Source: Trichlorobacter lovleyi SZ | GTDB taxonomy: Bacteria; Desulfobacterota; Desulfuromonadia; Geobacterales; Pseudopelobacteraceae | DNA length: 32,000 nucleotides | NCBI RefSeq assembly: GCF_000020385.1 | Contig: NC_010814.1 | Span: forward strand, 990,001 to 1,022,000 | Direction: 5' to 3' | Shown: piece by piece, positions 2,031 to 25,434 of the stretch | Layout: each line of letters begins with the position of its first letter | How positions within the stretch are numbered: position 1 is the first letter of the stretch | Position numbers and translations under genes: made by a program | The notes under the pieces: generated by a model | What the model saw: only the letters and a program-made list of their open reading frames with translations | What the model was told of the DNA's origin: nothing | Database searches by the model: none

Positions 2031-2071
2031 GCATGGCGGCATGCTTTACTAACTACAGGGGAGGTCATGGT

Positions 2072-3316: not shown

Positions 3317-3428
3317 CAGAACAAAAAACAGTGGCATTCAATTTTTTGAATGTGCTAATGTAGCAACTCTTTATGACAGCCACCCGTTTGGGGGCTGATC
3401 AGTAGCTGTAGTACCATAGAAAGACATA

Positions 3429-3549
3429 CCGCCCGGATTTGTTGTTCTGTACAAACCGGGACGGACGGAACATGGAACCTGCCGTTGCACCTGATGCAGC
3501 CGGTTTGTGGTAACAGGCACACCGTCCCGTGGTGTGCCTGTTTTATTTT
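3429..3549 (+). promoter_or_regulatory. Structured 5' leader of the panBC operon (candidate pan-motif-like element or attenuator)
   Basis: Hairpin CCG-CCCGG-A-TTTGT (3429-3442) pairs with ACAAA-CCGGG-A-CGG (3451-3464), leaving two unpaired A residues. The 3' arm ACAAACCGG can alternatively pair with CCGGTTTGT (3500-3508). The element ends in a strong terminator (3512-3549) only 11 nt before the panB ATG. Confidence 0.5.
3512..3549 (+). terminator. Rho-independent terminator immediately upstream of panB
   Basis: Perfect 12-bp stem AACAGGCACACC (3512-3523) / GGTGTGCCTGTT (3531-3542), followed by TTTTATTTT. Confidence 0.8.
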
Positions 3550-12131: not shown

Positions 12132-12212
12132 TAGACAGCCATCTGAGTGGTTTGTCTGGGGCGGCACCTGCAAATGTCCGGCCTGTGATACGGTTTCAAG
12201 ATCTGTGGGACT

Positions 12213-12244
12213 AAAAAAGGGGTGGCACTCAGGCCACCCCTTTT
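12213..12244. terminator. Bidirectional rho-independent terminator between convergent genes
   Basis: AAAAAA-GGGGTGGC (12219-12226) actcag GCCACCCC (12233-12240)-TTTT. The A-tract and T-tract allow function on both strands. Confidence 0.7.
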
Positions 12245-12345
12245 AAGTTGTCTCACTTCCACTTCAAGGATCGGTCTGCCCTGTCAGGTTTCTCGTCCCT
12301 GGATAGCGCCCGTGGGTTGAAATTGCAGCTCCATTCCGGTGGATA

Positions 12346-12645
12346 TCAGCAGCCTGCTGATTTTGTGAATTTTGCGCTGATATTTTTGCCGCTGTTCTCT
12401 TCAAATTTTACCTTTACATCATCGTCAATCGTAATTTTCTTGCTGCTGAGCTTGTCCTTGGTCAGATCATCGGCTATTTCGATCACAAACTCTTTGCCGC
12501 TTGCCTCGTCTTTCACAACAGTCGTAAAGCTGCCGTCAGCATTAGGGGTGATTTTTCGTACCGGCCCCTTGATGCTTGCGGCAAAGGAAAACGATGCGAT
12601 AGCGAGTACCGTAACGGCAGCGACAACGGATGACAGTTTTTTCAT
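12346..12645 (-). CDS. Small secreted protein, unknown function
   Basis: 99 aa. MKKLSSVVAAVTVLAIASFSFAAS is a signal peptide. AAAGGA lies upstream. The mature part is Lys/Asp-rich and ends ...KSAGC. This is preferred over the antisense low-complexity ORF 12248..12757. Confidence 0.6.
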   Translation of the reverse strand: MKKLSSVVAAVTVLAIASFSFAASIKGPVRKITPNADGSFTTVVKDEASGKEFVIEIADDLTKDKLSSKKITIDDDVKVKFEENSGKNISAKFTKSAGC

Positions 12646-12765
12646 GATTCTGATGATCCTTTCGGTATTGGGGATACCCCCGTTTTATATGACAGCCGGG
12701 CGGTCAAGACGTTACATATTTGGGTTTCAGGACTTTTGCTGTCTGGCAGTTCAGTAAAGCAGAAA

Positions 12766-13668
12766 TTACGCCACCTGGTCCCTGCCGCTCTGTTTTGCCT
12801 GATACAGCGCTTGATCGGCATGTGCAAGCAGTTCCTCAACGGAGCAGACGTCATTGTCCGGATATGCTGCAACACCGATGCTGACCGTTATCTTCAGGTC
12901 GGGGGAGATGTGGGAAAAAGCAATTGCGCGAACTTTTTGGCACAGCCGATGGGCCACCTTTAAGGCCTCACGCTTGCTGGTGTCGGGCAGCATCACCACA
13001 AACTCCTCACCGCCATATCGGAAAAAGAGGTCGTAGTCCCGTAAGCAGGCCGTGGCCTCTGCCGTCACTTTTTTGAGCGCCAAATCACCTGCCTGATGAC
13101 CAAATCTGTCGTTGATTTCTTTAAAGTGGTCAATATCAAGCATCAGCACCGACACCATGCCGTCGGTGCGTGCCGCCCGGCCCAGCTCAACATTGAGGAT
13201 GTGGCAGAGGTAGCGCCGGTTAAAGGCACCGGTCAGCGCATCCTTATGTGAAAGCAGTTCAAGTTCCTTGTTCCGTTTGCGGAGCTCCTCTTCACGACGT
13301 TTTGCGTTCAGGTGCAGTTTTGCCCGAGCTACAAGTTCCTGCGGATCATAGGGGATATGAATAAAATCGTGCGCTCCTGTTGTCAGGCCCTTCAGTCGGA
13401 TGTCGCGACTGGTATTGCTGGTCAGCAGCAGTACCGGAATGTGCTCTGTCTCGGTTCTTGAGCGGATTGCAGTCAAAAACTTAAGGCCGTCCATGCGTGG
13501 CATTTCAATATCACACAGGATGACGTCGGGGGCGTTCTGCGAGGCCTTTTGAAAACCATCCAGGCCGTCTACTGCCTCGAACACGGCATCCTTAAATCCG
13601 TTTTGCTTAAGGTCAGCCACTATTTTACGACGGGTTTCGCGGTTGTCTTCAACGACTAGAATGCTCAT
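12766..13668 (-). CDS. Response regulator with GGDEF output (PleD/WspR-like diguanylate cyclase)
   Basis: REC domain: ILVVEDN...DVILCDIEMPRMDG...LLLTS. A coiled-coil linker follows. The GGDEF domain has an intact GGEEF and an RxxD I-site (RDYD) 5 residues upstream. The ATG overlaps the stop of the upstream transglycosylase gene (ATGA, 13665-13668). Confidence 0.9.
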   Translation of the reverse strand: MSILVVEDNRETRRKIVADLKQNGFKDAVFEAVDGLDGFQKASQNAPDVILCDIEMPRMDGLKFLTAIRSRTETEHIPVLLLTSNTSRDIRLKGLTTGAHDFIHIPYDPQELVARAKLHLNAKRREEELRKRNKELELLSHKDALTGAFNRRYLCHILNVELGRAARTDGMVSVLMLDIDHFKEINDRFGHQAGDLALKKVTAEATACLRDYDLFFRYGGEEFVVMLPDTSKREALKVAHRLCQKVRAIAFSHISPDLKITVSIGVAAYPDNDVCSVEELLAHADQALYQAKQSGRDQVA

Positions 13669-14126
13669 CGTGCACCATCCTGGGTCAGTGATGCCTGCAT
13701 GCTGTGGTTTGCCAATTGTGCTGCAATGCGTTGGGCATAACGTTCATTTTTGCCCGGTGTTCTGCTGTTGTAACAGCCTACTGCCTTCCAGCCATAGCCG
13801 TAGTCATTGATGCACTGGCGCAGGATCCAGGCACCAACCTTGAGATTTGTGCAAGGATCACCCAGTTGTGACCACAGTTCAGGCCCCAGCCGTTTTGCCC
13901 AGCTTGAGTTGATTTGCATCAGGCCAAAGTCGTAACTGCCGTTCAGATTCCGGTTGATCGCATCAGGCTTCAGGTTGCTTTCCTGTCTGGCAATGCTTAA
14001 CAAGAGGGTTGGCGGCAGATTGTAGATCCTGCCTGCTTCTTCAAAGCAGAAGCCATACCCCATGGCGGGATTAAGGCATATCGCGATGCAGGACAGGATC
14101 GTTGCCAGTTTGCAGGTGCCCTTCAT
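13665..14126 (-). CDS. Specialised lytic transglycosylase (SLT domain; BfpH / R64 PilT / VirB1-like)
   Basis: Start placed at ATG 14126, 1 nt after the secretin stop (TAAtATG). MKGTCKLATILSCIAICLNPAMG is a signal sequence. SIARQESNLKPDAINRN...YDFGLMQINSSW is the SLT catalytic-Glu motif. Confidence 0.85.
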   Translation of the reverse strand: MKGTCKLATILSCIAICLNPAMGYGFCFEEAGRIYNLPPTLLLSIARQESNLKPDAINRNLNGSYDFGLMQINSSWAKRLGPELWSQLGDPCTNLKVGAWILRQCINDYGYGWKAVGCYNSRTPGKNERYAQRIAAQLANHSMQASLTQDGAR

Positions 14127-14127
14127 A

Positions 14128-15660
14128 TTAGCCCTCAGGAATAAATTCAATAATGGTTGGTTTGACAACGATAACCAACTCTTCCTTTTCTTTTTTTCCG
14201 GTAACATTCTTGGTCAGGTAGGTGTCTCCGGGCAGTCCGTTGACGTTGTCATCGTTCATCTCATAGACCAGCCCGCCGATGATGGCCACCTGCTCCGGTT
14301 TCATGCGCAGGAAGGTCTCGACGGACTTTTTAGTGGTTTCCGGTTGCATGAAGCTGCCCAACTGGGAACCGGCCGAGATGGTCACGTAGCGATTAACCCC
14401 CTCGACATTTACCTTCAGATTTATGGTCAGCATCTGCTGTTTTTTGTTGTAATAGGGGGTGAAATCCATGATCACCCCGGCCTTGGCAGTAGATGTCTTG
14501 GCTGTTGCCGCAGTGGCGCCACTGGTGCTGGAAAGGGAAGAAATGCCAATTTCGGAGACGTAGGGAGATTCGGTGACAATCTCAATCTTTCCTTTCTTGC
14601 CGCTCATGGTCTCGACAAAGACGTTCTGCATCACATTGTACTTGCCAAAGTTTTCCATGAAGCTGAACAGAGCCGAGAGTGAGAATCGGGACGACTCCAT
14701 GAATAGATTGGCCCCGCTTGTGTTGAACAGGGCACCGATACCCTGTTCAAATAAGTTGGTAGCGGGAGTTGTTGTTGTCGTTGTACCGGTGGTGGTTCCG
14801 GTTGACGAAGAACTGTCGTCAAGCTTTGCCAGTTTTTTAAAGCCAAGATTCTGGATATTTTGGGACTGCCAGCCAACCGCCATCTGCGACCAGTCAATCC
14901 CCAGGCTGTTGCCGTTGTTCAACCGCACATTCATTAATACGATCCGCATGGTGACCAGTGAGACGTTGTTCTTTAGGTTGTCCAGATATTCTTTCATGCG
15001 CTGGTATCCGGCATAATCTGCACGAAATGACATCGACGATGAAAGATCGTCGTAACCGACGCCTTCGGCCCCCAGCTTGACCATATTGCCTTCGACCGTC
15101 TTCAGAAGATCGGGGTAGTTGGGGACCAGCACGCTGAACGTTTCTCGCTCTTTCATGACAATGGCGCCGTTTTCAAAGGTAAAGAAGTAACCGGTTGAAT
15201 CAGAGAGGGTCTTAAACAGGTCAGACAACCTGCCGTTAAAAGAGACCGATACCATTCTTGAACGGGCAGATCCCTGTATTGCCGCTGGCTGCTGCCCCTG
15301 CTGTAAAGCCGTTTGGCTGTAGGCCGGTGCAAAGCTGTTTTTGTCAGGCATGTCATAGACAATGTTCAGGCCGGTGCTGGCAGCTAGTGCCTTCATAAAG
15401 TCGCGGATCTCAACGTTGTGCATGCTGATGGAGACATAGCGGTCATTGCTGAACGGCTTGGTCTCATGGACCTGAAAGGCGTTCTTCGGAATTGTCAGCC
15501 TGACGATTGAAGGTTCGGCGGGCAGCATGCTTTCCGCTTTTTTGGCAAGCTCATGCTGGGTAGGCAGGTCATCCTTGCGTATCTGCTGGATGGATGAGCA
15601 GCCGCCAAGCAGCAGCGTGCTGAAAAGTGCTACACAGAGCATGGTTCTGATCCGTATCAT
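14128..15660 (-). CDS. Outer-membrane secretin, lipoprotein type (T4bP PilN/BfpB-like)
   Basis: MIRIRTMLCVALFSTLLLGGCSS has a lipobox (LLGGC). An N-terminal secretin-N-like module has VSISMHNVEIRDFMKALAASTGLNIVYD. There is a Ser/Thr-rich linker SSSSTGTTTGTTTTTTP. The C-terminal secretin domain ends ...VAIIGGLVYEMNDDNVNGLPGDTYLTKNV...EELVIVVKPTII. Confidence 0.85.
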   Translation of the reverse strand: MIRIRTMLCVALFSTLLLGGCSSIQQIRKDDLPTQHELAKKAESMLPAEPSIVRLTIPKNAFQVHETKPFSNDRYVSISMHNVEIRDFMKALAASTGLNIVYDMPDKNSFAPAYSQTALQQGQQPAAIQGSARSRMVSVSFNGRLSDLFKTLSDSTGYFFTFENGAIVMKERETFSVLVPNYPDLLKTVEGNMVKLGAEGVGYDDLSSSMSFRADYAGYQRMKEYLDNLKNNVSLVTMRIVLMNVRLNNGNSLGIDWSQMAVGWQSQNIQNLGFKKLAKLDDSSSSTGTTTGTTTTTTPATNLFEQGIGALFNTSGANLFMESSRFSLSALFSFMENFGKYNVMQNVFVETMSGKKGKIEIVTESPYVSEIGISSLSSTSGATAATAKTSTAKAGVIMDFTPYYNKKQQMLTINLKVNVEGVNRYVTISAGSQLGSFMQPETTKKSVETFLRMKPEQVAIIGGLVYEMNDDNVNGLPGDTYLTKNVTGKKEKEELVIVVKPTIIEFIPEG

Positions 15661-16523
15661 TTATTCCTCCGGTTAATCGTATCAGCAGCGGGAGCAGCAG
15701 GGTCTGCGGGGGGGGGAGGCTCCGTCGCAGGTGTCGTTTCTTTCAGGTTCAGTAGAATAGTGGTGCCACCATCTGTACCCTTGAATATATGTCCTTCAGC
15801 GCCCGGCAGTCTGTATGCTGCCCCTTTTTGCTGTTGCAGCAGTGCAATAGTGGTAAGTAGAAAGGCGGTGTCGTCTTTATATTTTGTGTTTTCAGCCCGT
15901 GCCTTCAGGAGCTGCTCCTGTAACGTCGTACGTTCAGTTTCCAGCTGTTCCAGGGTCTGTTTCTGGTTGTTCAGTTCCTGTCTGACTTGGGTCAGTTCTG
16001 CTTCTTTGCCCTGCAAGGTGAGACTGCTGCGGGCGATCTCTGATTTGAGAGTGTCATCCAGCTGAATGCATTTTTGTGCAATACTCTGGGCTGAAAAGAT
16101 CAAGTCATCTAGACGGCGCGCAGGATCAACCGTGCGGGGTTCTACCCTGGTAGACCGTTTTTTTTCAGTAGCGTCCTTGCCACAGTGTACGCCGTCAAAG
16201 CTGGCAACACAGCCGCCTGCCAGGCTTTCGCCTTCAGCCAATGATAGGATCTCGCCGGTTTGGGTGTCAGTCACGATTACCCGGTTATCGATCTTTCCGG
16301 TAAACTCCCAGCGCTTCTTGTGTGGCAGTATCGTATTGCCCGGGTGGGCACCAGGAAGTGGTGGCAATGGTACCGTCGGCAATTGAGGTTTTGGTGCTCC
16401 CGTCGTTACCGGCTTGGTTTCATTTTTCTGGGGTGTGTTGCCTTCAACAAAAGGGCTGGCAGCTGCAATCTGAGCTGCCAGCGCTGTTGTGATCAGGCCT
16501 ACCGTAACAATCCTGATAAACAT
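15657..16523 (-). CDS. Secreted Pro-rich / coiled-coil protein with a possible GspC/PilP-type HR (secretin-docking) domain
   Basis: Start placed at ATG 16523 (GGAG 5 nt upstream). Signal peptide MFIRIVTVGLITTALAAQIAAASP. FTGKIDNRVIVTDTQTGEILSLAEGESLAGGCVASFDGVHC resembles the HR-domain pattern. A long heptad-like Q/E/L stretch (LTQVRQELNNQKQTLEQLETERTTLQEQLLKARAE) is present. The stop overlaps the secretin ATG (ATGA, 15657-15660). Confidence 0.55.
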   Translation of the reverse strand: MFIRIVTVGLITTALAAQIAAASPFVEGNTPQKNETKPVTTGAPKPQLPTVPLPPLPGAHPGNTILPHKKRWEFTGKIDNRVIVTDTQTGEILSLAEGESLAGGCVASFDGVHCGKDATEKKRSTRVEPRTVDPARRLDDLIFSAQSIAQKCIQLDDTLKSEIARSSLTLQGKEAELTQVRQELNNQKQTLEQLETERTTLQEQLLKARAENTKYKDDTAFLLTTIALLQQQKGAAYRLPGAEGHIFKGTDGGTTILLNLKETTPATEPPPPADPAAPAADTINRRNK

Positions 16524-16536
16524 GCTCACTCCGGGG

Positions 16537-18075
16537 TTAGTTGAATTTTGTCAGGGATTTTGTGCCAGATGATGTTTCAATCATAATACCGGCTGCATTT
16601 GGATCATCCTTTTCCACCAGTGGCAGGCTGTAGGTAACGCCGTTTTTGCGTATCCGCACCGGAGAGCTAGAGTAGCCCACAGGCTCGGCGGCAATACTGA
16701 CAGTACCGCTTGCCGTTTTTTGACGAATGCCGCTATCCAGCAGCGGTCCGTAAGGGATTGGGGCTACGGAAAGCTTGGCGATATAGTCACCGGTAAAGGA
16801 GTTGTCTGAGCCGATAATTCCGATGCCACCCCACTTGTCCAGCACCATGTACGGAAACTTTCCCTTGGCAACCTTGGCCAGGCCGCTGTCGGCAAAGCTG
16901 CTGTCAGGTACACCGGTGGTCTTGTTGATACGGCTTAAGGTTGCAGAGCTGCTGCTGGAAAGTGGAATGATAAAAAACGAGCTTGTGGAGGTGCCGTTGT
17001 TGAGCAGGTACAGGGTGTTTTCTGATACCCTCAGGGTCAGATTTTCAACTGATTGAAAAAACATCGACAAAAACGGAATTTTGACTGTACCCCCCCCCTG
17101 GCCCCAGCCGGTTATCAAGTTGCCGCTGTTAGCGTCGTACTTTCTGACAAAGTTGTCAGAGACATTAAAGATAATGAAGTCCTGGGTGTTGGCTCCTGCC
17201 AGGTAGATGCCGCTGTTGTCAATGGCGAGGGAGGTGGCCTTTTCCTTCTGGAAGAGGGGGTTGGTATAGGTCTGTGCCCACTGTTCGGCGCCGGTTATGG
17301 CATCCACCTTGGTGATCCGGTATTTTTGGTCAGTCAGGCTCTTAATGTTGATGGCGGTATAGAGGTAGCCGTTGAAGATGGCAGCATCGCCAAAGCCGAT
17401 GGTGGTTAACCACTGTTTGTCAATGGCAGCAGTATAGGAGCCCAGCACCGACCCGTCGGCATAGGAAAGTCGTTTGGCAAAGCAGGCTGAGTAGATGCCG
17501 TCTATTCCGCTGGTGATCAGCAGCAGGCCGTTGTTGCCAGGCAGTGGAAGCAGCTTTTGGAACGAGATGGTGCCGATGGTGAAGGTGGCAACCAGGCTGC
17601 CGCTGGCTGCGTTTCGTTTCTGGATGCGGTAGGTGATATCGTGGTGATCGTAGTAGAGGATGTACAGGTGACCGTCGCCACCCAGTACCAGGGCCTTGGG
17701 GTCGTGGTTGTGCCAGGAGTTGACATCGGACAGGGTGCCGTTTGTGCCGAACTCAGGTACCAGGGTGCCGGTTTTCCAGTCCCGTTTTTGCAGTAGCAGA
17801 TCCCGCTCGTAAATGGCGGCAATGCTGGACGGCTTGGTCTTGTGCAACGAGTACAGGTAGGCCGGTGTGGTGGTGGTAGCCTCCTGCAGGGCCAGCATTG
17901 GCGATTCTGGATAGGCGGCAGGTGCCACCACCGGAATGGGAGAGCCCGGAGACCAGGCCTGCCAGGCCGGTTGTCCGGCAGGCAACCCTTGCCAATAGGG
18001 ACCGTCAGCCTGGGCAGGTAGGCTGCACAGACAGCAGAGTAGCAGGGTTGCAAGGCATGTGATGATAAATTTCAT
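16537..18075 (-). CDS. Secreted repeat protein, probably beta-propeller (possible PilY1-type tip adhesin analogue or cargo)
   Basis: 512 aa. Signal peptide MKFIITCLATLLLCCLCSLPAQA. The repeat pattern '...Y(L/I)xG....(F/Y)x(I/V)xK(L/V)xaxxGxLxxx(F/W)G' recurs (YRIQKRNAASGSLVATF; YRITKVDAITGAEQWAQ; FVRKYDANSGNLITGWG; LSRINKTTGVPDSSFADSG). This is reminiscent of delta-60/SBBP-type propeller blades. GGAGAGAG SD. Confidence 0.6.
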   Translation of the reverse strand: MKFIITCLATLLLCCLCSLPAQADGPYWQGLPAGQPAWQAWSPGSPIPVVAPAAYPESPMLALQEATTTTPAYLYSLHKTKPSSIAAIYERDLLLQKRDWKTGTLVPEFGTNGTLSDVNSWHNHDPKALVLGGDGHLYILYYDHHDITYRIQKRNAASGSLVATFTIGTISFQKLLPLPGNNGLLLITSGIDGIYSACFAKRLSYADGSVLGSYTAAIDKQWLTTIGFGDAAIFNGYLYTAINIKSLTDQKYRITKVDAITGAEQWAQTYTNPLFQKEKATSLAIDNSGIYLAGANTQDFIIFNVSDNFVRKYDANSGNLITGWGQGGGTVKIPFLSMFFQSVENLTLRVSENTLYLLNNGTSTSSFFIIPLSSSSSATLSRINKTTGVPDSSFADSGLAKVAKGKFPYMVLDKWGGIGIIGSDNSFTGDYIAKLSVAPIPYGPLLDSGIRQKTASGTVSIAAEPVGYSSSPVRIRKNGVTYSLPLVEKDDPNAAGIMIETSSGTKSLTKFN

Positions 18076-18090
18076 TGCGCTCTCTCCGCC

Positions 18091-18891
18091 TTATTGCAGT
18101 AGCCAGATCTGGCCGTTAATCGGGTTTTGGGGGTCAACGGTGGTGGTCTGGATCACCAAGCCGTCGGTGGCCTTCAGGACTCCTCCCTGAACATCCATTT
18201 TGACCGTTGGTGTTGTGGGAGGGGTCGCCGGAGATTCACCAACCACCACGGTATCAGCCTTCGTAATCAGCTTGATCTTGTTCGTTGTCTCTGTGCCGGT
18301 TGGTGCTTCCCGCCGCCAGCCCGGTACTTGGCCAATTTCGGCCTGGGTGAATTCAACAAATATATCGTCACCTCTCGCTGTGGTTGCGTTGCAGGGCGTT
18401 TCTCCTGTGATACCGTTAAAAATGCCGTCAGGGCCGACTGAAACGATCCGGCCGGTTAGCAGCGAGGTGTTCAGATTGTTATAGCTGTCAGGCGGTGCAA
18501 TGTTGTTGTTTGAAAAATGGATGGTGTCGGTACTGTTTTGTGTCCCCAGATCCCAGGCGCAGTAGCTGTAGTCATGTCCCCAGGCATCCTTTGCATTGTA
18601 CGATCCAGCCGGCAGCGTATTGCCGGTGCCGACAGCGGGTGGCTCGTATTTGCCGTCATCATCAATATCCCTGGATTGATTCATCAGAAAGTTTTTGATC
18701 TCTTTCATCTTCAGTACGGTATCAGCCGAGTTGTAGTAGCGGGCATGACTGGCCTGGCTGGTGTTAAGCGAGAGCAGCAGCAGGATGATAAGCGGGATAA
18801 GTGCCGTCAAAGCCACCAGGCTGAGGAGCGCAATCCCCTTGTTGTTGTTCACGCCGTTGCTGCGGGTCTGTCTGGTCATGGATGCAGCCAT
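18091..18891 (-). CDS. Large pilin-like (pseudopilin/minor-pilin-like) protein lacking Glu5, with a DxDxDG Ca-binding-type motif
   Basis: The N-terminus ...NNNKG/IALLSLVALTALIPLIILLLLSL is a class III signal-like segment with Ser at +5 instead of Glu, as in GspK-type minor pseudopilins. DIDDDG at 18652-18669. The start is ambiguous: ATG 18891, or ATG 18879 which sits 12 nt from GAGAGG. Confidence 0.5.
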   Translation of the reverse strand: MAASMTRQTRSNGVNNNKGIALLSLVALTALIPLIILLLLSLNTSQASHARYYNSADTVLKMKEIKNFLMNQSRDIDDDGKYEPPAVGTGNTLPAGSYNAKDAWGHDYSYCAWDLGTQNSTDTIHFSNNNIAPPDSYNNLNTSLLTGRIVSVGPDGIFNGITGETPCNATTARGDDIFVEFTQAEIGQVPGWRREAPTGTETTNKIKLITKADTVVVGESPATPPTTPTVKMDVQGGVLKATDGLVIQTTTVDPQNPINGQIWLLQ

Positions 18892-18899
18892 CCTCTCTG

Positions 18900-19337
18900 T
18901 CAAACGCCCTTCAGGGTGATGGTCAGGTTGAAGCCTTCCGGTCCGCACCCTGTTCCGATGCAGAGGCTCTCATACTCCATCCGGTACGGTAGGGCAGAAA
19001 GGGTGTTGATAAAGCCATAGATATTGCTGTCATGGCCTAGCACCTGATCCGTTTTTATCCTGGTCAGATCGGGTTTTGCCATCAGGCTTGGCCCCTTCAG
19101 GGAGACCTCGAGAGGCAACTCGTACTGGCGTCCAATAGCCTGGGTAAGGTTACGCAGGCTCAGCATCCGGGCATCATCAGGCGGTACCAGGCTGTTCATC
19201 TGCTGCTGTACCTGGGTCTTGACCACATCCTTCCAGGTTTTCTGCACATCCTGGCGCACCTTGATCCCCTTTGCCAGTACCGTTATGCTAGCGAGCAGCA
19301 GAAAGAGCGGTAGTATATATAACCTTATCGCCTTCAT
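18900..19337 (-). CDS. Small N-terminally anchored periplasmic protein (GspM/PilO-like topology)
   Basis: Start placed at ATG 19337 (GGAGGA 4 nt upstream). MKAIRLYILPLFLLLASITVLAKG is followed by a soluble domain of about 120 aa. The assignment rests on size, topology and position only. Confidence 0.45.
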   Translation of the reverse strand: MKAIRLYILPLFLLLASITVLAKGIKVRQDVQKTWKDVVKTQVQQQMNSLVPPDDARMLSLRNLTQAIGRQYELPLEVSLKGPSLMAKPDLTRIKTDQVLGHDSNIYGFINTLSALPYRMEYESLCIGTGCGPEGFNLTITLKGV

Positions 19338-20151
19338 AGTTTCCTCCGGTGGTTCGTAAAAAGACCTGCGCATCAGCATCCTGGTTGAATTTAATGGTGC
19401 AGGTAAGCTGGTCTTTTGCTAATGCGACCTTTACGATGAATCCCTTGCCTTCGATCTTTTTTCCCAGATCAGCCACCGAATTTATGAAGGATGGCAGTCC
19501 GCGTGGTATGACCGGTGCAACCTGTGCTACCAGGCGTTGCTGCTCTTTGCGGGCCGTGTCATATCCCTTTGCCGAGAGGGCCAGGAACAGGGTGGAAAGT
19601 CCCAAAAAAGCCAGTAGGGCAGCGTTAAGAAACAGGTTCTTTCTGGCGAGGGACCAGGTCAGCTTCAGGGTTGCCGGCGGGCTGTTGACCGGTACCTGCT
19701 GTATCATCAGGTGGTTCGGGCGTTCTTCGTAGGCAACCTCGGCTGAGCAGAACCCGTCCTTGTTGGTGAGGTAGTAGAAGTAATCAGCATCCGTCTTTTT
19801 ATAGACAAAGTTGCCCTGCAGTATCAGCGCAGGATAGAACAGCGGCAGCCTGCCAGCGACATGCTGCTTGCTCTTCAGTGCGATAAAAGAAAGGATGCCG
19901 TTCAGGTACTGATAGCTGTAGTAAAAATCGTCACCCAGCAGCGGGATAGCCTTGCCGTTGATGTAGGACAGAATCTCTTTCTGTTCGATTCCCACGCTGT
20001 CCATGACAAATTCATCACTGAATACCAGGCGTGAGGTGTCGACTAAAACCGGTGGTGGATCTGACACGGGCTTTGTTTTTACTTTCCTGATTACCGGCCG
20101 CTCGTCTGGTGCAAGATCAGGCTGTGAGTCCAGCGCTGCATCGTTAGCCAT
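19288..20151 (-). CDS. Bitopic inner-membrane assembly protein (GspL/BfpC-like topology)
   Basis: Start placed at ATG 20151 (GGAGGA upstream; it overlaps the platform gene stop by 8 nt). A cytoplasmic domain of about 165 aa, a single TM segment LFLNAALLAFLGLSTLFLALSA, and a periplasmic domain of about 95 aa. The 3' end overlaps the next gene by 50 nt. The assignment rests on topology and position only. Confidence 0.45.
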   Translation of the reverse strand: MANDAALDSQPDLAPDERPVIRKVKTKPVSDPPPVLVDTSRLVFSDEFVMDSVGIEQKEILSYINGKAIPLLGDDFYYSYQYLNGILSFIALKSKQHVAGRLPLFYPALILQGNFVYKKTDADYFYYLTNKDGFCSAEVAYEERPNHLMIQQVPVNSPPATLKLTWSLARKNLFLNAALLAFLGLSTLFLALSAKGYDTARKEQQRLVAQVAPVIPRGLPSFINSVADLGKKIEGKGFIVKVALAKDQLTCTIKFNQDADAQVFLRTTGGNYEGDKVIYTTALSAAR

Positions 20152-21307
20152 GCAGTCCTCCAAGTAGTTTGCTGTACGGGATCATGATGCCCATCACCAT
20201 CAGAAGAAAGATGCCACCGGCAAAGATCAGGGCAAAGGCATAGACCCTGGGCCCCAGCGCCTTGACCTTTTCCATGTAGCCACGGTAAAAACGGTCGGCC
20301 ACCAAGGACAGGTTTTCTGTGACTCGGTTTGAGTTCTGGGCAACATCCAGCATGGTTTTCTCAATTGGGTTTAAGCAGGTAAAGCCGTAGGAGAAGCTTT
20401 CTCCCTCCTTTACCTTTTTAATGGCATTGTCAAATTCTGTGCGAATGGCGATGGTTCGCGAGGTGTCCTGCACGATTTCTAGGGCCGGGGATAACTGAAT
20501 TCCGGTCTCCATCAGTTTTGCCATGGAAAAGAAGGCCACATAAAAACCTTGATAGAAAAACAGCTCCCGAATCAGCGGGACAGAGAGCAGTAATTTTTCC
20601 ATCTCTTGCTGGCGGCTTTTGTAGAGCACTGCCACAACCACCGTCACAATCGCCAAGGCGGCAAAAACTGCCGGCACAATATGCGAAAGGGCCGACAAGG
20701 CCTGGATGAAAAAGTTGGTCTGCCCCTTCAGGGCGGTCTTGAACAGTTGCGAGGCCAGTATCTTGGGGATCACCACCTGAGTGTTTACCACCAGGGCAAT
20801 CACCGATACGATAAAGATCACCAGCGGGTAGGAGAGCGTTTTTTTCATCTCGCTCTGGCTCGCTTCAATGTTGGTGATGTACTGCGCCGCCCCCAGCAGG
20901 CTTTCTGCCAGCCGTCCCGACTTCTCTCCGGCCTGGATCATGGAGATGGTGGTGCTGCCAAAGACCGAGTGGTAGGCGGTCATGGCGGATGAGAGCTCGC
21001 GGCCCTGTTGTACGGCGGTCTTGATGGCGTTTAAGATTGTGATCAGTGAGGAAGCACGGGGTAGTGACTGGATGGTGGTTTCCAGCGTCTTAGAGAGCGG
21101 TACGCCTGCCTGCAGCAGATCCCCGATCGCCACCAGCACCGCTGCCAGTTCTTTGCGTTTGGCCTTGGGCTGAAACAGGGTGAGCGGCTTTTTGATGGAA
21201 AGCACTACCTTGCCTTCGCTGATCAGCCGTTCTCTGATCTCGGCGGCTGAACCGATGAATTCCGCCTCTTTGCGGACCCCTTTGTCAAAGTAGGTGACCT
21301 GATGCAT
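20144..21307 (-). CDS. Type IV pilus / T2SS inner-membrane platform protein (GspF/PilC family)
   Basis: 387 aa. Length and hydrophobic-segment layout fit two tandem T2SSF-type modules. The gene starts 2 nt after the ATPase stop. Confidence 0.9.
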   Translation of the reverse strand: MHQVTYFDKGVRKEAEFIGSAAEIRERLISEGKVVLSIKKPLTLFQPKAKRKELAAVLVAIGDLLQAGVPLSKTLETTIQSLPRASSLITILNAIKTAVQQGRELSSAMTAYHSVFGSTTISMIQAGEKSGRLAESLLGAAQYITNIEASQSEMKKTLSYPLVIFIVSVIALVVNTQVVIPKILASQLFKTALKGQTNFFIQALSALSHIVPAVFAALAIVTVVVAVLYKSRQQEMEKLLLSVPLIRELFFYQGFYVAFFSMAKLMETGIQLSPALEIVQDTSRTIAIRTEFDNAIKKVKEGESFSYGFTCLNPIEKTMLDVAQNSNRVTENLSLVADRFYRGYMEKVKALGPRVYAFALIFAGGIFLLMVMGIMIPYSKLLGGLHG

Positions 21308-21309
21308 GG

Positions 21310-22896
21310 CTAATCCATGATCTCCATGGCATCGTTACAGTCGGTCTGCTGACGGCAGGAAGCACACCAGGCGCCACCCAGGCGAATTCCCAATACCCGC
21401 TGGATCTCGGCGCAGTCGGTTGTCCGGTTTGTCAGTTTGGTGCGGGCATCGTCAATAAAACGTTGATAGGGCAGGTCATCTTCCCCTTTGTGATCAATCA
21501 GGCGGTAGATATCTTTGGGGCTGTTCAGGCGGGCAAACTCGGTCAGGAGCGTCCTGCCCTTGTAGCCGGTCTGTTTGCACTCCTCACAACCGGCTCCCTC
21601 ACACTGGGCGCACAGTTTGCGGGCCAGTTTCTGCACCAGTATCCCCCGCAGCGCATAGGAGAGTTTGGGGATCTCTGCCCCCAGGTCTTTTAGCCGCAGA
21701 ATGGTGGAGGGGATGTCGTTGGTATGCAGGGTGGCATAGACCAGGTGGCCGGTATCGGCCAGCCAGAGGGCGTTCTCTGCGGTCTCGCTGTCCCGTACCT
21801 CGCCAACAACCACCACATCAGGGTCATGGCGCAGCACGGTCCTGCCAAAGGCGGCAAAATCAAGGTTGATGCGGCGATTCACCTGCACCTGGGTCACAAA
21901 CGGCACCCGGTATTCAACCGGATCTTCCACAAAGTAGACTGCCTTTTCCAGCAGGTTCAAGTGCCGTACCGTCGAATAAAGCGTGGTGGTCTTGCCGGAG
22001 CCGGTGGCACCGCAGACCAGGATCAGGCCGGTAGTCAGCCTGGCCAGTTCAAGCCAGTCGTTGATGGCGCTGATGCCGATTTCCTGCACCCCGATCATCA
22101 TCTTTTCCTTGTCCAGGATCCGGATGGTCGCCTTTTCGCCGTAGGTGGATGGGATGGTTGAAACCCGGAAGTCGACATTGCGACCACGGTAGTTCATGGA
22201 AAAGGAGCCGTCCTGGGGCACCATCTTGTCGGATACGTTCATGCCGGACATGTCCTTGATCCGGGAGAAGATCTTGTTGGACAGGCTGTCCGGCAGGGCC
22301 TTGACCATATGCAGGATACCATCGATTCGGCAACGGACATGCAAAGATTTCTCCGATGTCTCCAGATGGATGTCGGAGGCGCCATCCTCCAGGGCATCAT
22401 GGATGATGGCGGTGAGTTGTTTGTTGATGTCGGTGTCGTCCTGACCCCGTCTGGTGGCATGCATCGAACGTTCCAGGGTGGCCAGATGTTCGGTAATGAT
22501 GGTGTGGCGGATCGGGACCAGGGTTAGGGTCATCGAGAGGTCAAGCAGCTTGCCGATCGCCTCCAGCACCTCACGGGGGTGAGGGTGCAGGGTCGCCAGG
22601 TACAGGGTGTTGCCGGTATCCCCCAGGATCATGCACTTGTATTTCAGGAGTAGTTCAGGCGGCAGCTCAACCTGTACCGAGGTCTCGCCGATCAGCGACT
22701 CCGGGTTTAAGTGGGCCAATGCCTCAACCAGGTGGCTGCGCTCAAAAAAACCGAACCGGATCAGGATTTCTCCCAGCTTTTCGCCGGTGATGGCCTGTTC
22801 CTGCAGGGCGACGTCAAGCTTCTGTTGGTTGATCAGTCCCTGCTCCCGCAGGTACTCGCCGACACGGGTTCGTGTATAGGGCGTGGTGGTCTGCAT
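21310..22896 (-). CDS. Type IV filament assembly ATPase (GspE/PilB family) with an MshEN-type N-terminal domain
   Basis: Start placed at ATG 22896, 2 nt after the pilin stop; the longer listed ORF overlaps the pilin gene. Walker A GATGSGKTTT, Walker B/Asp box DPDVVVVGEVRD, His box TGHLVYATLHTND, tetracysteine CAQCEGAGCEECKQTGYKGR. The N-terminus has RVGEYLREQGLINQQKLDVALQEQ-AITGE-KLGEILIRFGFFERSHLVEALAHL. Confidence 0.92.
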   Translation of the reverse strand: MQTTTPYTRTRVGEYLREQGLINQQKLDVALQEQAITGEKLGEILIRFGFFERSHLVEALAHLNPESLIGETSVQVELPPELLLKYKCMILGDTGNTLYLATLHPHPREVLEAIGKLLDLSMTLTLVPIRHTIITEHLATLERSMHATRRGQDDTDINKQLTAIIHDALEDGASDIHLETSEKSLHVRCRIDGILHMVKALPDSLSNKIFSRIKDMSGMNVSDKMVPQDGSFSMNYRGRNVDFRVSTIPSTYGEKATIRILDKEKMMIGVQEIGISAINDWLELARLTTGLILVCGATGSGKTTTLYSTVRHLNLLEKAVYFVEDPVEYRVPFVTQVQVNRRINLDFAAFGRTVLRHDPDVVVVGEVRDSETAENALWLADTGHLVYATLHTNDIPSTILRLKDLGAEIPKLSYALRGILVQKLARKLCAQCEGAGCEECKQTGYKGRTLLTEFARLNSPKDIYRLIDHKGEDDLPYQRFIDDARTKLTNRTTDCAEIQRVLGIRLGGAWCASCRQQTDCNDAMEIMD

Positions 22897-22898
22897 CG

Positions 22899-23405
22899 CT
22901 AGCTGACGCGGCTGATCCAGTAGGTGAATGACACGGTACCGGATGTCGGCATGGAATCTGTGGTGGAACCGCAACTGGCGTTGGTGATAACCTTCATGGA
23001 AGAGGTCTTCTTCTTCAGTTCGCTTGCGGCGGCGGCAATGGCGTCGCTATAGGCGGCCTGGGCACAGACATAGTTGCCGTTGGCGCTGGCGCCCAGCAGG
23101 TAACCGTCAACCCAGCCGGCAGTGGTTGGCCGCTCAAATCCGCTGTCTGCCTTGGGTGGAAAGAGGTAGACCGGAACAAAGGTGCTGTCAGTCAGACCGA
23201 CAGGGACTGCATTTTTTTCATGCTTGAAGTTGTTGAAGGCCATCTCGATGTTTGAAAAGTCATTCAAAAGCTTCATTGAGGCGCTTTCTGCCTGGCGATT
23301 GCCGCTACCGGCCCCTAGGATCCCCACCATCAGAGCAATGACAGCACTCAGCATGATCATCACCACCAGTACCTCAAGCATGGTAAAACCGCTTCTGTTA
23401 CGCAT
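22899..23405 (-). CDS. Type IV prepilin-like protein (second pilin, short leader)
   Basis: MRNRSG/FTMLEVLVVMIMLSAVIALMVGILG is a class III signal with Gly-1, Phe+1 and Glu+5. Start placed at ATG 23405 because GGAG sits 6 nt upstream. The upstream ATG 23417 has no SD and abuts a 12-bp hairpin. There are two Cys residues in the C-terminal part. Confidence 0.8.
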   Translation of the reverse strand: MRNRSGFTMLEVLVVMIMLSAVIALMVGILGAGSGNRQAESASMKLLNDFSNIEMAFNNFKHEKNAVPVGLTDSTFVPVYLFPPKADSGFERPTTAGWVDGYLLGASANGNYVCAQAAYSDAIAAAASELKKKTSSMKVITNASCGSTTDSMPTSGTVSFTYWISRVS

Positions 23406-23419
23406 TGTCTTCTCCATAG

Positions 23420-23464
23420 GGCTGTCTGCCGATTGAGGGGGGGATCCACAACCGGCAGACAGCC
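23420..23464 (-). promoter_or_regulatory. Perfect 12-bp stem-loop between the two pilin genes
   Basis: GGCTGTCTGCCG (23420-23431) / CGGCAGACAGCC (23453-23464) with a 21-nt loop containing a G7 run. There is no U-tract on the coding (minus) strand. Confidence 0.6.
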
Positions 23465-23479
23465 TTCAGTTGCCCTGGC

Positions 23480-24028
23480 TTATTGAACAAAGACCGGAAT
23501 TACCGCGGTGTACGGATCCGCTGAACCGTAGCACTGGATATTTTTAGTACCTGAAACGGATGCGGGGATGGTGCCTGTTGTGTCACCATAGGCCGCCTTG
23601 TTGATCGCCTTGCAGATGTCTGTGTTGATGCCGGCAAGGGTGACTACCGTGTCAGTGCCCGTTGAACCGAATGCAGTCACGCCGGTTGTGGTCCAGTTGT
23701 AGGCGTTGGATATCGGCGAGGGAGCGGTAGGGGAGACTTTCAGATAGCCTTTTTCCACCAGGCAGGTTGCTGTGCCTGAAATACCGGTTGGGGTGGCTGC
23801 CTCTTTGGCCTTGTATGATTGTGCTGCCCCTTCAATGGAACGCAGGTCATCAATCACCCGGGTGGCGGCGCTGTCAACGCTGGCGTTGGCAAAGGGGTTG
23901 CCGAAGATCCCCACCATTAAGGCAACGGCCAGGCCGATCAGGACCAGCACGATCAACATCTCTACCAGGGTAAAGCCCTTTTGATTCCGTAATCCTGAAG
24001 CCTTCTGCTTTTTCATTGTGGTGCTCAT
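23480..24028 (-). CDS. Type IV prepilin (likely major subunit), long leader peptide
   Basis: Start placed at ATG 24028 (AAGGAG 10 nt upstream). MSTTMKKQKASGLRNQKG/FTLVEMLIVLVLIGLAVALMVGIFG is an 18-aa leader, followed by a mature protein of about 164 aa with 3 Cys (TATC, DIC, IQC), consistent with a C-terminal disulfide loop. The upstream 69 codons of the listed ORF are rejected. Confidence 0.85.
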   Translation of the reverse strand: MSTTMKKQKASGLRNQKGFTLVEMLIVLVLIGLAVALMVGIFGNPFANASVDSAATRVIDDLRSIEGAAQSYKAKEAATPTGISGTATCLVEKGYLKVSPTAPSPISNAYNWTTTGVTAFGSTGTDTVVTLAGINTDICKAINKAAYGDTTGTIPASVSGTKNIQCYGSADPYTAVIPVFVQ

Positions 24029-24095
24029 GCCGGTGACTCTCCTTAGGTTGTGAGTTTTCTGTCCAACTTGAACAGTACGAAATGAGGATTGACAG

Positions 24096-24353
24096 CTACA
24101 CTGCAATACTGGTGACCCAGGCCATGATCTCCTGGCGTGAGAGGAAGAGCGGTGATCTGCCCTGGGGCAGTCTTGCGATGACCTCACCGGCAAAACGGCG
24201 ATGCAGGGTAAGCGCCTGCTGGTTAGGGATGACATCCAGCAGCAGTGCCAGGGCCAGTTGTTCTGTGTTGTGATGTGTATAGCACGGGGTCATCGGGGGA
24301 TTTGTGCTGCTATGATGGCAGGCGCTGTCTGTATACCATGGTGTTTCGCGCAT
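24096..24353 (-). CDS. Small hypothetical protein, first gene of the pilus operon
   Basis: 85 aa. ATG 24353 is preceded by AGGAGA at 9-nt spacing. The C-terminal part (GEVIARLPQGRSPLFLSRQEIMAWV) faintly resembles excisionase/AlpA-type winged-helix proteins. No confident family. Confidence 0.45.
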   Translation of the reverse strand: MRETPWYTDSACHHSSTNPPMTPCYTHHNTEQLALALLLDVIPNQQALTLHRRFAGEVIARLPQGRSPLFLSRQEIMAWVTSIAV

Positions 24354-24430: not shown

Positions 24431-24495
24431 TTGATATAATTTGTGTGCATTGTTACCGAAATTGATAGCTTGATATAGTATAGTTATTATATCAA
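24431..24495. promoter_or_regulatory. Operator-like TTGATATA repeats in the divergent control region
   Basis: TTGATATA at 24431-24438 and at 24470-24477. TTGATAgc at 24462-24469. Inverted copy TATATCAA at 24488-24495, giving a perfect 8-bp inverted repeat with a 10-bp spacer. Imperfect palindrome ATATCCAATATTGATAT at 24421-24437. A further TTGAT overlaps the -35 at 24516-24520. Confidence 0.4.
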
Positions 24496-24519
24496 GTCAA
24501 CTTCTAAAATGGGCATTGA

Positions 24520-24548
24520 TTGACCTGAGGTGCAAAAAAAGCTATATT
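24520..24548 (+). promoter_or_regulatory. Sigma70-type promoter for the CI-like regulator
   Basis: TTGACC (24520-24525), a 17-nt spacer, then TATATT (24543-24548). AAAGGAGG SD at 24567-24574 and ATG at 24580. Confidence 0.5.
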
Positions 24549-24579
24549 GTTTCTTCAGGGAAAAGCAAAGGAGGTGACT

Positions 24580-25434
24580 ATGACAGCAAAAAGCACTAAA
24601 ATAGTTGAACTTTTTGATGGCGCTGCTGCTCATGAACCCCATGAGGACGCTGCGATAGCCGTGTCCAAAAGTGATGAGGAAGTTGCCTTAAGCACGCGTC
24701 AGGTGCTGGCACGGATCAAGGAACAGCTGGGGCTTGATACGGATATTGAGCTGGCAGAGGCGATGGGAATCGGTATCAGGCGAATTCATAACTGGAAACA
24801 CCGCAACACGGTGCCGACCGAAGAGATCGTGGCTATCTGTGGTAAGGAAGGGCTTGATTTGCAATATATTCTGACTGGCCCGGGGCCACTGCAGGGGGGG
24901 GGGGCTATGCAAGCTGGAGCAAAAAAAGGGGCGGTACATTGCAACTTTGATCCGGAGCAGGCGAACAAGCCGCGCGACACCTATACCCCTTCACAGTGCG
25001 GTCATCCTCGGATACATCCGCCCTACAAGGCCTACACCCAACGCTCGGAAAAAGGCGAAGTGCTTTCCTCGTTTTCCTCACCCCAGATTGTGGATGTGCT
25101 GGCGCCTGGTCTCAATTGGCTGAATCATTCGCTGGGGATTGCGCCGGAGCATTTTCTGCTGGTTAAGGCGTTAGGGGATAATATGGCCCCTTGGCTGCAG
25201 GATGGTGATTTGATTATGGTTGATACCAGCATAAAAACCACCACAGCCGGTGGATGCTTGCTGTTGCGTTACCCTGATGGGGTTTTGATGGTGCGACGGG
25301 TGTTCAGAAGTCCGGAGGGTAGGCTGATGGTGAGGGATGACAATGAGTGCTCGCCGCCTGATGCCATAGATCCCAATGATAACTCAACCTATCCGATTGT
25401 GGTGGGCAGGGTGGTGAGACGCCTGGTACGTTGA
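24580..25434 (+). CDS. Phage CI / LexA-like regulator (N-terminal CI-type HTH plus S24-peptidase-like C-domain with substituted catalytic dyad)
   Basis: Start placed at ATG 24580. HTH: LAEAMGIGIRRIHNWKHRNTVPTEEIVAICGKEGLDLQYILTG. C-domain: LVKALGDNMAPWLQDGDLIMVD...GVLMVRRVF...IVVGRVVRRL. This aligns with LexA VSGMSMKDIGIMDGDLLAV...EVTVKRLK, with Asn at the Ser position and Arg at the Lys position. Confidence 0.85.
   Translation: MTAKSTKIVELFDGAAAHEPHEDAAIAVSKSDEEVALSTRQVLARIKEQLGLDTDIELAEAMGIGIRRIHNWKHRNTVPTEEIVAICGKEGLDLQYILTGPGPLQGGGAMQAGAKKGAVHCNFDPEQANKPRDTYTPSQCGHPRIHPPYKAYTQRSEKGEVLSSFSSPQIVDVLAPGLNWLNHSLGIAPEHFLLVKALGDNMAPWLQDGDLIMVDTSIKTTTAGGCLLLRYPDGVLMVRRVFRSPEGRLMVRDDNECSPPDAIDPNDNSTYPIVVGRVVRRLVR
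24894..24904 (+). repeat. G11 homopolymer inside the regulator CDS
   Basis: ctg caG GGG GGG GGG Gct encodes LQGGGA in the linker between the HTH and the S24-like domain. This is the longest mononucleotide run I found in the window. Confidence 0.95.

Follow-up and report, generated by a model that had tools for sequence, protein, structure and literature searches.

Although machines belonging to the superfamily of type IV filaments have been studied thoroughly, hundreds of 'generic' members are still unplaced, and Denise, Abby and Rocha (2019) left 884 such systems unclassified (PMC6668835). In the TXSScan models, MshM is mandatory for the mannose-sensitive hemagglutinin pilus (MSH, or MSHA) and pilD for the type IVb pilus (T4bP) (PMC6668835). 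Among the generic systems in S5 of that study is GELO001...generic_1, with an ATPase, a platform, pilins and a secretin, no peptidase, and hits to mshH and tadZ; its lineage and accessory genes are not described there (PMC6668835). This entry is probably, subject to confirmation of its identity, the locus analysed here, an operon in a stretch of 32,000 nt of Trichlorobacter lovleyi SZ (positions 990,001 to 1,022,000 of contig NC_010814.1), the whole of which we call the window. The mshH and tadZ hits are what the operon's gene for a response regulator with a receiver and a GGDEF domain (REC-GGDEF) would give.

The operon is a rare, previously uncharacterized lineage of a known machine type. 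Judged by gene content, profile cutoffs and rough trees, this lineage lies outside the type II secretion system (T2SS), MSH, the type IVa pilus (T4aP) and T4bP, and the view of the initial annotation that the locus fits none of the canonical classes is borne out by gene content and profile scores. We consider it probable, with somewhat better than even confidence, that the operon encodes a complete and functional type IV filament machine of this unclassified lineage, most likely an adhesive surface pilus, a function deduced from the sequence. Searches of the literature with the Glov locus tags and with DUF6166 yielded no paper, and searches on the pili of pMPPla107 and on pilins and secretins of G. 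lovleyi yielded nothing of relevance.

Organization and integrity of the operon

The operon comprises 13 genes, all on the minus strand and tightly packed from 24353 to 12766 of the window. Read in the direction of transcription, its genes and elements, preceded by the divergent regulatory gene and the control region, are the following.

24547-25434, plus strand: CI/LexA-type repressor (helix-turn-helix and S24 self-cleaving peptidase, from Pfam), 284-295 aa
24354-24546, no strand: AT-rich control region with candidate operator, repeats between repressor and operon
24096-24353, minus strand: small DUF6166 protein, 85 aa, accessory (Pfam DUF6166, 35.6 bits, cutoff 27)
23480-24028, minus strand: prepilin 1, 182 aa, candidate major pilin (N_methyl, 34.4 bits)
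23420-23464, minus strand: stem-loop after the pilin1 gene (16-bp stem, -38.9 kcal/mol, z -3.68)
22899-23405, minus strand: prepilin 2, 168 aa (N_methyl, 24.8 bits)
21310-22896, minus strand: assembly ATPase, 528 aa (T2SSE, 322 bits; MshEN; NF053729, 52.6 bits)
20144-21307, minus strand: GspF/PilC-type inner-membrane platform, 387 aa (T2SSF, 105.6 bits, two repeats)
19288-20151, minus strand: L-like bitopic protein, 287 aa, family marker (from topology)
18900-19337, minus strand: M-like protein, 145 aa (N-terminal transmembrane anchor and periplasmic domain)
18091-18879, minus strand: pilin-like protein without Glu5, 262 aa, candidate tip or initiator subunit
16537-18075, minus strand: secreted beta-propeller protein, 512 aa, accessory, candidate tip adhesin or cargo (AlphaFold2 model)
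15657-16523, minus strand: exported coiled-coil protein, Pro-rich and with a small beta domain, 288 aa (gene directly before that of the secretin)
14128-15660, minus strand: lipoprotein secretin, 510 aa (Secretin, 60.5 bits; lipobox LLGGC)
13665-14126, minus strand: dedicated lytic transglycosylase, 153 aa (SLT, 77 bits)
12766-13668, minus strand: REC-GGDEF response-regulator diguanylate cyclase, 300 aa (GGDEF, 161 bits; Response_reg, 85 bits)

The operon proteins correspond to ACD94688-ACD94698 (Glov_0965-0975), and the five middle genes are "hypothetical" in the NCBI annotation. The co-oriented, tightly packed arrangement reported initially was found again, as were its two ATGA overlaps (13665-13668, 15657-15660) and the junction TAAtATG (14124-14130). 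Genes overlap by 50 nt (L-like/M-like), 8, 4 and 4 nt, and the remaining junctions are gaps of 1-20, 67 and 74 nt, the last shrinking to 62 nt if an alternative pilin2 start is used. Most of the genes are preceded by a GGAG-type ribosome-binding site, and every ORF is intact (13 of 13). Identical copies of the operon occur in one metagenome-assembled genome (MAG) and in several read-archive assemblies.

We compared the operon with its close relatives (L007, L008, L010, L014, L015 and one contig from the European Nucleotide Archive, ENA) and with three distant members (L009, L016 and L017). Ten core genes are syntenic across relatives at 58-96% identity. Against L014, the ratio of nonsynonymous to synonymous substitutions (dN/dS) was 0.04-0.20 for 11 of the 12 genes compared, indicating purifying selection, although these values are approximate, dS being saturated; for the secretin the estimate failed because of this saturation. 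The genes without a recognizable family are included (L-like 0.07, M-like 0.10, 262-aa 0.13, 512-aa 0.14, 288-aa 0.20), and the operon ORFs are therefore real genes. GC content is 0.50-0.56 across the operon (12001-21000 of the window) versus 0.58-0.63 in the flanking housekeeping genes, which is consistent with horizontal acquisition. This low GC and the orphan context are also what a decaying remnant without function might display, but the intact ORFs, the coupled junctions with their ribosome-binding sites, the low dN/dS and the identical copies in independent assemblies make such a remnant hardly credible.

The recognizable core and its placement

N_methyl, T2SSE, T2SSF and Secretin matches are all above their Pfam cutoffs, which places the operon in the type IV filament superfamily. 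The two prepilins carry leaders of 18 and 6 residues, MSTTMKKQKASGLRNQKG/FTLVE in pilin1 and MRNRSG/FTMLE in pilin2 (the slash marks the end of the leader), so that the initial reading of both leaders stands together with their N_methyl matches. A mature N-terminus that begins with Phe is found more typically among T4a and T2SS pilins. Pilin1 is encoded by the first pilin gene of the operon, which is followed by a conserved hairpin, and pilin2 is kept in all family members.

The ATPase scores about equally on the PilB (349 bits) and GspE (339 bits; cutoff 630) models, in both cases through its catalytic core only, and among PDB proteins it is as near to GspE (263 bits) as to PilB (260 bits), with the T4b protein BfpD at 91 bits. 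The ATPase is thus remote from those of T4bP, BfpD scoring far below GspE and R64 PilQ being the most distant sequence in the tree. Its N-terminus is of the MshEN type, as had been noted from the sequence, with matches to MshEN and, above the NCBIfam cutoff of 38, to the MshE-related cyclic di-GMP (c-di-GMP) motif NF053729. The motif of this region is conserved across the clade, aligns with Aeromonas caviae MshE, and is absent from GspE, HofB and PilQ. The tetracysteine zinc motif of the ATPase (residues ~430-441) is compact, CxxC-x4-CxxC: 4 residues lie between its two CxxC pairs in the family and in Variovorax, 12 (8 extra) in pMPPla107, and 25-45 in MshE, GspE, HofB and PilQ. The platform is a two-repeat T2SSF protein whose scores on NCBIfam equivalog models are all below cutoff.

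Lipoprotein secretin, SLT enzyme and REC-GGDEF protein, all three proposed earlier, are confirmed by the lipobox LLGGC and by Pfam matches. The best NCBIfam model for the secretin is MshL (TIGR02519), at 88 bits versus a cutoff of 250 and 279 for a true MshL; PilQ gives 51 bits and GspD 49.7 versus a cutoff of 351. The T4b PilN-family model (TIGR02520) gave no match, and BfpB gave 26 bits. All family secretins are lipoproteins, a trait that had been taken as a T4bP hallmark. Since the MshL of A. caviae has a lipobox, as have the secretins of pMPPla107 and Variovorax, the lipobox does not discriminate for T4bP. The transglycosylase is IagB-like (103 bits, below cutoff) and is found in all close family members and in L009, whereas L016 and L017 gave no SLT match. 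The REC-GGDEF protein is PleD-like, and the start of its gene overlaps the SLT stop codon (ATGA); among relatives, it occurs only in L008 and L014 besides the window, and DUF6166 only in L010. The DUF6166 match of the first ORF means that this small protein, considered unassignable before, does have a family. The 32-kb window contains no prepilin peptidase gene.

Neighbor-joining (NJ) trees were built with reference proteins from Escherichia coli (Gsp and the T4aP-type HofB/C), R64 (pil), A. caviae MSH (L019), pMPPla107, Variovorax and Rhodoferax. The MSH reference was verified by its MshL score above the cutoff, an MshM-like ATPase and the MshE motif. Its record, NZ_AP026896.1 (PLSDB), carries the label of a plasmid (pKAM479_3) but, being 4.94 Mb long and having an MSH locus of the canonical chromosomal type, looks like a chromosome under a wrong label. 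In the ATPase tree (406 columns, 200 bootstraps), the family groups with pMPPla107 and Variovorax at 95.5%, apart from GspE, HofB and MshE, and the compact-zinc indel agrees with this clade. In the platform tree, the family is monophyletic at 76%, and a group of GspF, HofC and MshG has 90% support. This topology recurs in the secretin tree, with the family outside the MshL/GspD pair at weak support. Of all references, those from R64 (PilQ, PilR and PilN) lie farthest away in their respective trees. The phylogenetic check suggested for ATPase and secretin, carried out here as rough NJ, thus puts both outside the T2SS, Hof, MSH and R64 references. As the three trees are concordant, the core would be one coherent divergent lineage rather than assembled parts, which disagrees with the mosaic parts list first proposed.

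These data also bear on whether the operon is a divergent member of a canonical class, MSH in the first place, with accessory genes that have drifted past recognition. The MshE-type N-terminus of the ATPase, the MshL profile at the top of the secretin matches and the organization as a single locus without a prepilin peptidase, like MSH loci, speak in favor of it. Yet the MshL score is far below both its cutoff and that of a true MshL, the gene order differs, and neither an ExeA-like AAA protein corresponding to the mandatory MshM nor any MshI/J/K/N match is found in the locus. Moreover, ATPase, platform and secretin all branch outside the GspE/HofB/MshE-type group, as seen with a single MSH reference in rough trees with thin sampling. 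Drift from MSH is in our view very improbable, and a separate lineage agrees better with these observations.

Accessory proteins of the operon

The L-like, M-like, 262-aa and 288-aa proteins gave no Pfam, NCBIfam or PDB match, family profiles included, and PDB searches with profiles of the accessory families were empty. Their profiles were compared by hhalign with E. coli GspC/G/H/I/J/K/L/M, R64 PilJ/K/L/M/O2/P/S/V, the A. caviae MSH accessory proteins and the megaplasmid neighbors. The only match among the four was between the pilin N-terminal helix of the 262-aa protein and GspG (70% probability); the L, M and 288-aa profiles stayed below 10% against E. coli GspC/L/M. At least five products had been regarded as lacking a family; this remains so for the L-like, M-like and 288-aa proteins, while the small ORF is a DUF6166 protein and the 512-aa protein a beta-propeller.

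The L-like protein consists of a ~165-aa cytoplasmic domain, one transmembrane helix and a ~70-aa periplasmic domain of the order alpha-beta-beta-alpha-beta-beta. No homology to GspL, PilN/O, MshI/J or R64 PilO/P was detectable, and none of the 52 members of its family matched any relevant Pfam model. Its AlphaFold2 (AF2) model, from an 11-sequence alignment, is confident only for the transmembrane helix and the C-terminal domain (predicted local distance difference test, pLDDT, 73-87). The best natural Foldseek matches were the PulL C-terminal domain (TMt 0.59, not significant), PulM and EpsM, which agrees with a periplasmic fold like that of GspL/M without establishing it. The resemblances to GspL/GspM and to an HR-domain protein claimed initially could not be demonstrated from sequence; structural support, of a weak kind, exists for a ferredoxin-like C-terminal domain in the L-like protein. 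The proposed AlphaFold/Foldseek check of the unassigned ORFs was informative for the 512-aa propeller; for the L-like protein it yielded only the C-terminal domain, with no significant fold match. The M-like gene always directly follows the L-like gene in the family, and its product has an invariant Cys pair near the C-terminus, CxGxxC (residues 126 and 131), in 8 of 8 aligned members, possibly forming a periplasmic disulfide.

The pilin-like protein was first described as 266 aa long and Glu5-less; it does lack Glu5, reading ...NNNKG/IALLS, and gene callers give 262 aa. Its homologue in L017 has the canonical prepilin motif G/FTLIE. In L016, the homologous region forms the first ~230 residues (E 1e-29) of a 2528-aa ORF without any Pfam domain (L016:11637-19223), which is probably a giant adhesin carried by the pilus; in the type IV filament cluster of a conjugative Rhodoferax plasmid, a large protein begins with a similar module. 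Because of the pilin N-terminal helix, the prepilin motif in L017 and the giant fusions in L016 and Rhodoferax, we propose that this protein may act at the tip of the fibre.

Both the 512-aa and the 288-aa proteins carry Sec signal peptides. Homologues or positional analogues of the 288-aa protein lie directly before the secretin in L007, L010, L014, L016, L009 and L017, and a P-F motif follows the signal peptide in 7 of 7 sequences compared; hhalign and a PDB profile search found no homology to GspC, PilP or MshK. In L007, the orthologue (12352-13620) has 422 aa, with a C-terminal 'KDDxAFLLTTxALL...KG' module present three times. The 512-aa protein has only a sub-threshold PQQ-propeller match and only 7 homologues (52-98% identity). 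AF2 models a beta-propeller at residues ~60-385, with most of 120-290 at pLDDT 80-94 and the C-terminal 120 residues unresolved, and Foldseek returns generic propellers (BamB, YncE and BtuG, E ~1e-6). An identity with PilY1 was rejected, as no PilY1/PilC appeared in the Foldseek top 50.

The propeller raises the question of a dedicated T2SS-like secretion system, in which a short pseudopilus of two pilins would push this protein, and perhaps others, through the secretin. Its signal peptide and its place within the operon, the presence of only two ordinary pilins and an ATPase equally near GspE and PilB would all suit such a function, and operon-encoded proteins exported by filament systems, namely TcpF and CofJ, give a precedent. 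The propeller, however, is absent from L007 and from all three distant members, in which the machine is retained. As it is dispensable across the family, the cargo idea, and with it the secretion reading, is weakened. Further arguments against it are the failure to detect any of GspC, H, I, J, K, L and M, the fusion of the 262-aa module in L016, which resembles a displayed adhesin and not the tip of a piston, and the MshEN N-terminus, a feature that typifies the ATPases of pili and not GspE. We therefore judge a secretion system unlikely, and continue to favor an adhesive pilus.

Relatives and genomic context

The L-like protein was used as the family marker. A word-indexed search among 5.8 billion proteins found 11 homologues of 58-100% identity. 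A hidden Markov model (HMM) search matched 52 cluster representatives in 1.84 billion, 51 of them at E ≤ 1e-10, nearly all over most of their length; ten clusters that were checked are tiny and nearly all metagenomic, one coming from a Nitrospirota MAG. A word-indexed search with the 52-sequence profile added one protein only (P0096), a scan of the genome collection with a two-sequence platform alignment, whose patterns were over-specific, gave one near-identical locus, and no plasmid matched the L-like protein in a tblastn search. A phage origin was rejected because viral contigs gave no relative.

Close relatives share the order pilin, pilin, ATPase, platform, L, M, 262-aa, (512-aa), 288-aa, secretin, SLT, and lie in differing chromosomal neighborhoods. 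The family gene set, consisting of two pilins, a compact-Zn MshEN ATPase, the platform, the L-like and M-like proteins and a lipoprotein secretin, is shared with L007, L008, L010, L014, L015, L009, L016 and L017. The distant members are 28-32% identical in the L-like protein, 37-53% in the ATPase and 33-36% in the secretin. In L009 (120-15723), the pilus cluster runs on the same strand into VirB2/3/4/8/9/10 and a TraF-like S26 peptidase, which suggests a conjugation-coupled pilus not of the IncI type. The L017 cluster, on a 198-kb contig, adjoins genes for a plasmid initiator (Rep3), a helicase (UvrD) and a primase-like protein with a CHC2 zinc finger. The best plasmid-borne matches of ATPase and secretin by tblastn are the pMPPla107, Variovorax and Rhodoferax clusters. 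The term orphan, applied to the system initially, holds within this genome and does not extend to distant members beside a VirB-type type IV secretion system (T4SS) or a plasmid replication gene. The gene set and context of the operon look like those of a horizontally mobile element, an origin supported by low GC, shifting neighborhoods, VirB genes in L009, Rep3 in L017 and the CI-type regulator.

One may then ask whether the operon encodes a mating-pair or DNA-transfer pilus like the IncI thin pilus, which in T. lovleyi would be an orphan serving an element elsewhere or DNA uptake. The VirB genes of L009, the replication genes beside L017 and the CI-like regulator fit this idea, as does the location of the nearest annotated ATPase and secretin relatives on megaplasmids, one of them typed MPF_I. 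Against it, the 32-kb window lacks T4SS, relaxase and tRNA genes, no integrase emerged from Pfam scans of the genes flanking the operon, these flanks consist of housekeeping genes, mobile-element genes occur in only 2 of 3 distant contexts, the L-like, M-like, 262-aa and 288-aa proteins are not homologous to R64 PilL/M/O/P/V by hhalign, and R64 PilQ and PilN are the most distant references. A role in DNA transfer is thus, in our estimation, quite improbable; a mobile origin of an adhesive pilus is the interpretation that we retain.

Control region and RNA elements

The divergent repressor gene, 193 bp upstream of the operon (Phage_CI_repr 47.6 bits, Peptidase_S24 31.6 bits), had escaped the initial annotation and belongs to the unit in most close relatives: the same divergent S24 neighbor is found in L010, L014, L015 and the ERZ1426829 contig, not in L007, while the L008 contig begins inside the ATPase gene and its upstream region is outside this comparison. 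Between repressor and operon, the 8-mer TATATCAA occurs three times within 66 bp (24431-24496), with four occurrences in the whole window versus 0.19 expected, and a 12-nt inverted repeat, CTTGATATAGTA/TATTATATCAAG, lies at 24469-24496. These repeats are a candidate operator. Upstream of the operon, no c-di-GMP riboswitch or other Rfam element was found.

The stem-loop after the pilin1 gene is without a U-tract. Hairpins of 13-15 bp, with unrelated stem sequences, lie at the same place in L010 (4671-4699), L014 (6686-6718) and L015 (3257-3295), which fits a transcript-stabilizing or attenuating element that would raise the dose of the major pilin.

Elsewhere in the window, an Rfam 'pan motif' RNA (3374-3468, plus strand; 49.5 bits, gathering score 36.2) lies just upstream of panB/panC; it is ordinary and without relation to the pilus operon. 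Two ORFs have no Pfam match, one of 427 aa (2033-3316, plus strand) and one of 99 aa (12346-12645, minus strand), the latter just downstream of the GGDEF gene.

Proposed function

The function that we favor for the operon is a c-di-GMP-gated adhesive pilus of mobile-element origin, presumably under the control of a CI/LexA-like repressor. A prepilin peptidase encoded elsewhere in the genome would cleave pilin1, the likely major subunit, and pilin2; the hexameric ATPase would drive the GspF-type platform, extruding the pilins; and the lipoprotein secretin would form the outer-membrane channel, with the SLT enzyme opening the peptidoglycan locally. These steps follow the established behavior of the respective families, while those below are our inference. 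The L-like and M-like proteins may be functional analogues of GspL/GspM or PilN/PilO, linking the ATPase and platform to the periplasm, and the coiled-coil protein of 288 aa could bridge the inner-membrane platform and the secretin. The Glu5-less 262-aa protein would prime or cap the fibre and, here, present the 512-aa propeller as an adhesin. Transcription might be gated by the divergent self-cleaving repressor of the CI/LexA type acting on the TATATCAA repeats, and assembly by c-di-GMP, made by the co-transcribed REC-GGDEF protein and sensed by the MshEN N-terminus of the ATPase. This second gate is proposed because NF053729 scores above its cutoff, the motif is conserved in the clade and the GGDEF gene overlaps the SLT stop.

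Several points weigh against this proposal. REC-GGDEF, DUF6166 and the propeller are not part of the core, since they are not conserved across the family, and the propeller shows no specific similarity to PilY1 and could be cargo. No retraction ATPase is present in the locus. The cytoplasmic ~170 residues of the L-like protein have a pLDDT of ~30, a failed model, and Foldseek returned nothing significant for this protein; roles for the L-like, M-like and 288-aa proteins were assigned from their topology, the position of their genes and a single AF2 domain modelled with partial confidence. The trees are neighbor-joining with one reference per canonical class and arbitrary rooting, and support in the secretin tree is 42-46%. 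The TATATCAA repeats are assigned a possible operator role from their sequence.

A wider reading, which we advance only tentatively, joins these elements. In it, the operon would belong to a branch spread by plasmids and conjugative elements, in certain members physically joined to a VirB-type T4SS, with an inner-membrane and periplasmic alignment subcomplex of its own, and would be a domesticated chromosomal adhesive pilus in Geobacteraceae. This subcomplex would consist of the L-like protein, the M-like protein and the coiled-coil partner of the secretin, all three lacking detectable homology to GspC/L/M, PilM/N/O/P, MshI/J/K and R64 PilL/M/O/P. The CI/LexA-type repressor would switch the pilus on, possibly upon DNA damage, and c-di-GMP would control its assembly.

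A compact system of about ten genes, in which motor, platform and pore are recognizable and the connectors are not, is a natural test of what an alignment complex requires. If confirmed, the link with conjugative elements would mean a second, non-IncI lineage of conjugation-associated pili. The operon also adds a surface-fibre system in an organohalide-respiring species, at a time when Geobacter pili and the secretion of redox proteins are much debated. Interest would be greater if the separate clade and the mobile-element link hold under proper phylogenetics.

Comparison with known systems

With MSHA, the operon shares the MshEN N-terminus of the ATPase, a lipoprotein secretin with MshL as its best profile, a single locus that includes neither a prepilin peptidase nor a retraction ATPase, and a linked GGDEF-type protein. 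It differs in having no MshM, MshN, MshI/J/K or MshO/P/Q, in the MshL score of 88 versus 250, in core proteins that branch outside the MshE/G/L references, and in a compact zinc motif, pilin genes at the head of the operon and a dedicated SLT enzyme. Likeness to the T2SS lies in the GspE-like catalytic core, the GspF platform, the GspG/H-like N-termini of the pilins, a bitopic pair after the platform gene, in the functional place of gspL/gspM, and a Glu5-less pilin-like protein that recalls GspK. Here, however, GspC, H, I, J, K, L and M are not detectable, two ordinary prepilins and one Glu5-less protein stand in place of the five pseudopilins GspG-K, the ATPase has MshEN, the secretin is a lipoprotein of 510 aa, the GspE and GspD equivalog cutoffs are missed, and there is no known substrate.

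Among T4bP, the 18-residue leader of pilin1 is long in the manner of this class, and a lipoprotein secretin is accompanied by a dedicated transglycosylase; the ATPase and secretin are not of the T4b type, and the prepilin peptidase that T4bP have in or near the locus is missing from the window. T4aP differ by their PilM/N/O/P alignment complex and their PilT retraction ATPase, domains that are not found in this locus. The IncI thin pilus (R64 pilI-V; PAPI-1, TP114) resembles the operon in its lipoprotein secretin, dedicated lytic transglycosylase and long pilin leader, in a pilin-like adhesin subunit whose C-terminal portion is variable or large, and in the physical joining to a T4SS, seen here in the distant member L009. 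In contrast to it, the operon has no PilN-model match, no homology to PilL/M/O/P/V and no prepilin peptidase gene, and the T4SS beside L009 is VirB-type, not of the IncI (Dot/Icm-like) kind.

The megaplasmid clusters of pMPPla107 (P. amygdali) and Variovorax plasmid 2 have another gene order, secretins only 24-31% identical, and post-platform genes that reach an hhalign probability of 0.1-1.3% against the L-like family. On the other hand, they hold the nearest annotated relatives of the ATPase, 37-39% identical over 95% of its length, and share with this operon a compact or near-compact Zn motif and lipoprotein secretins.

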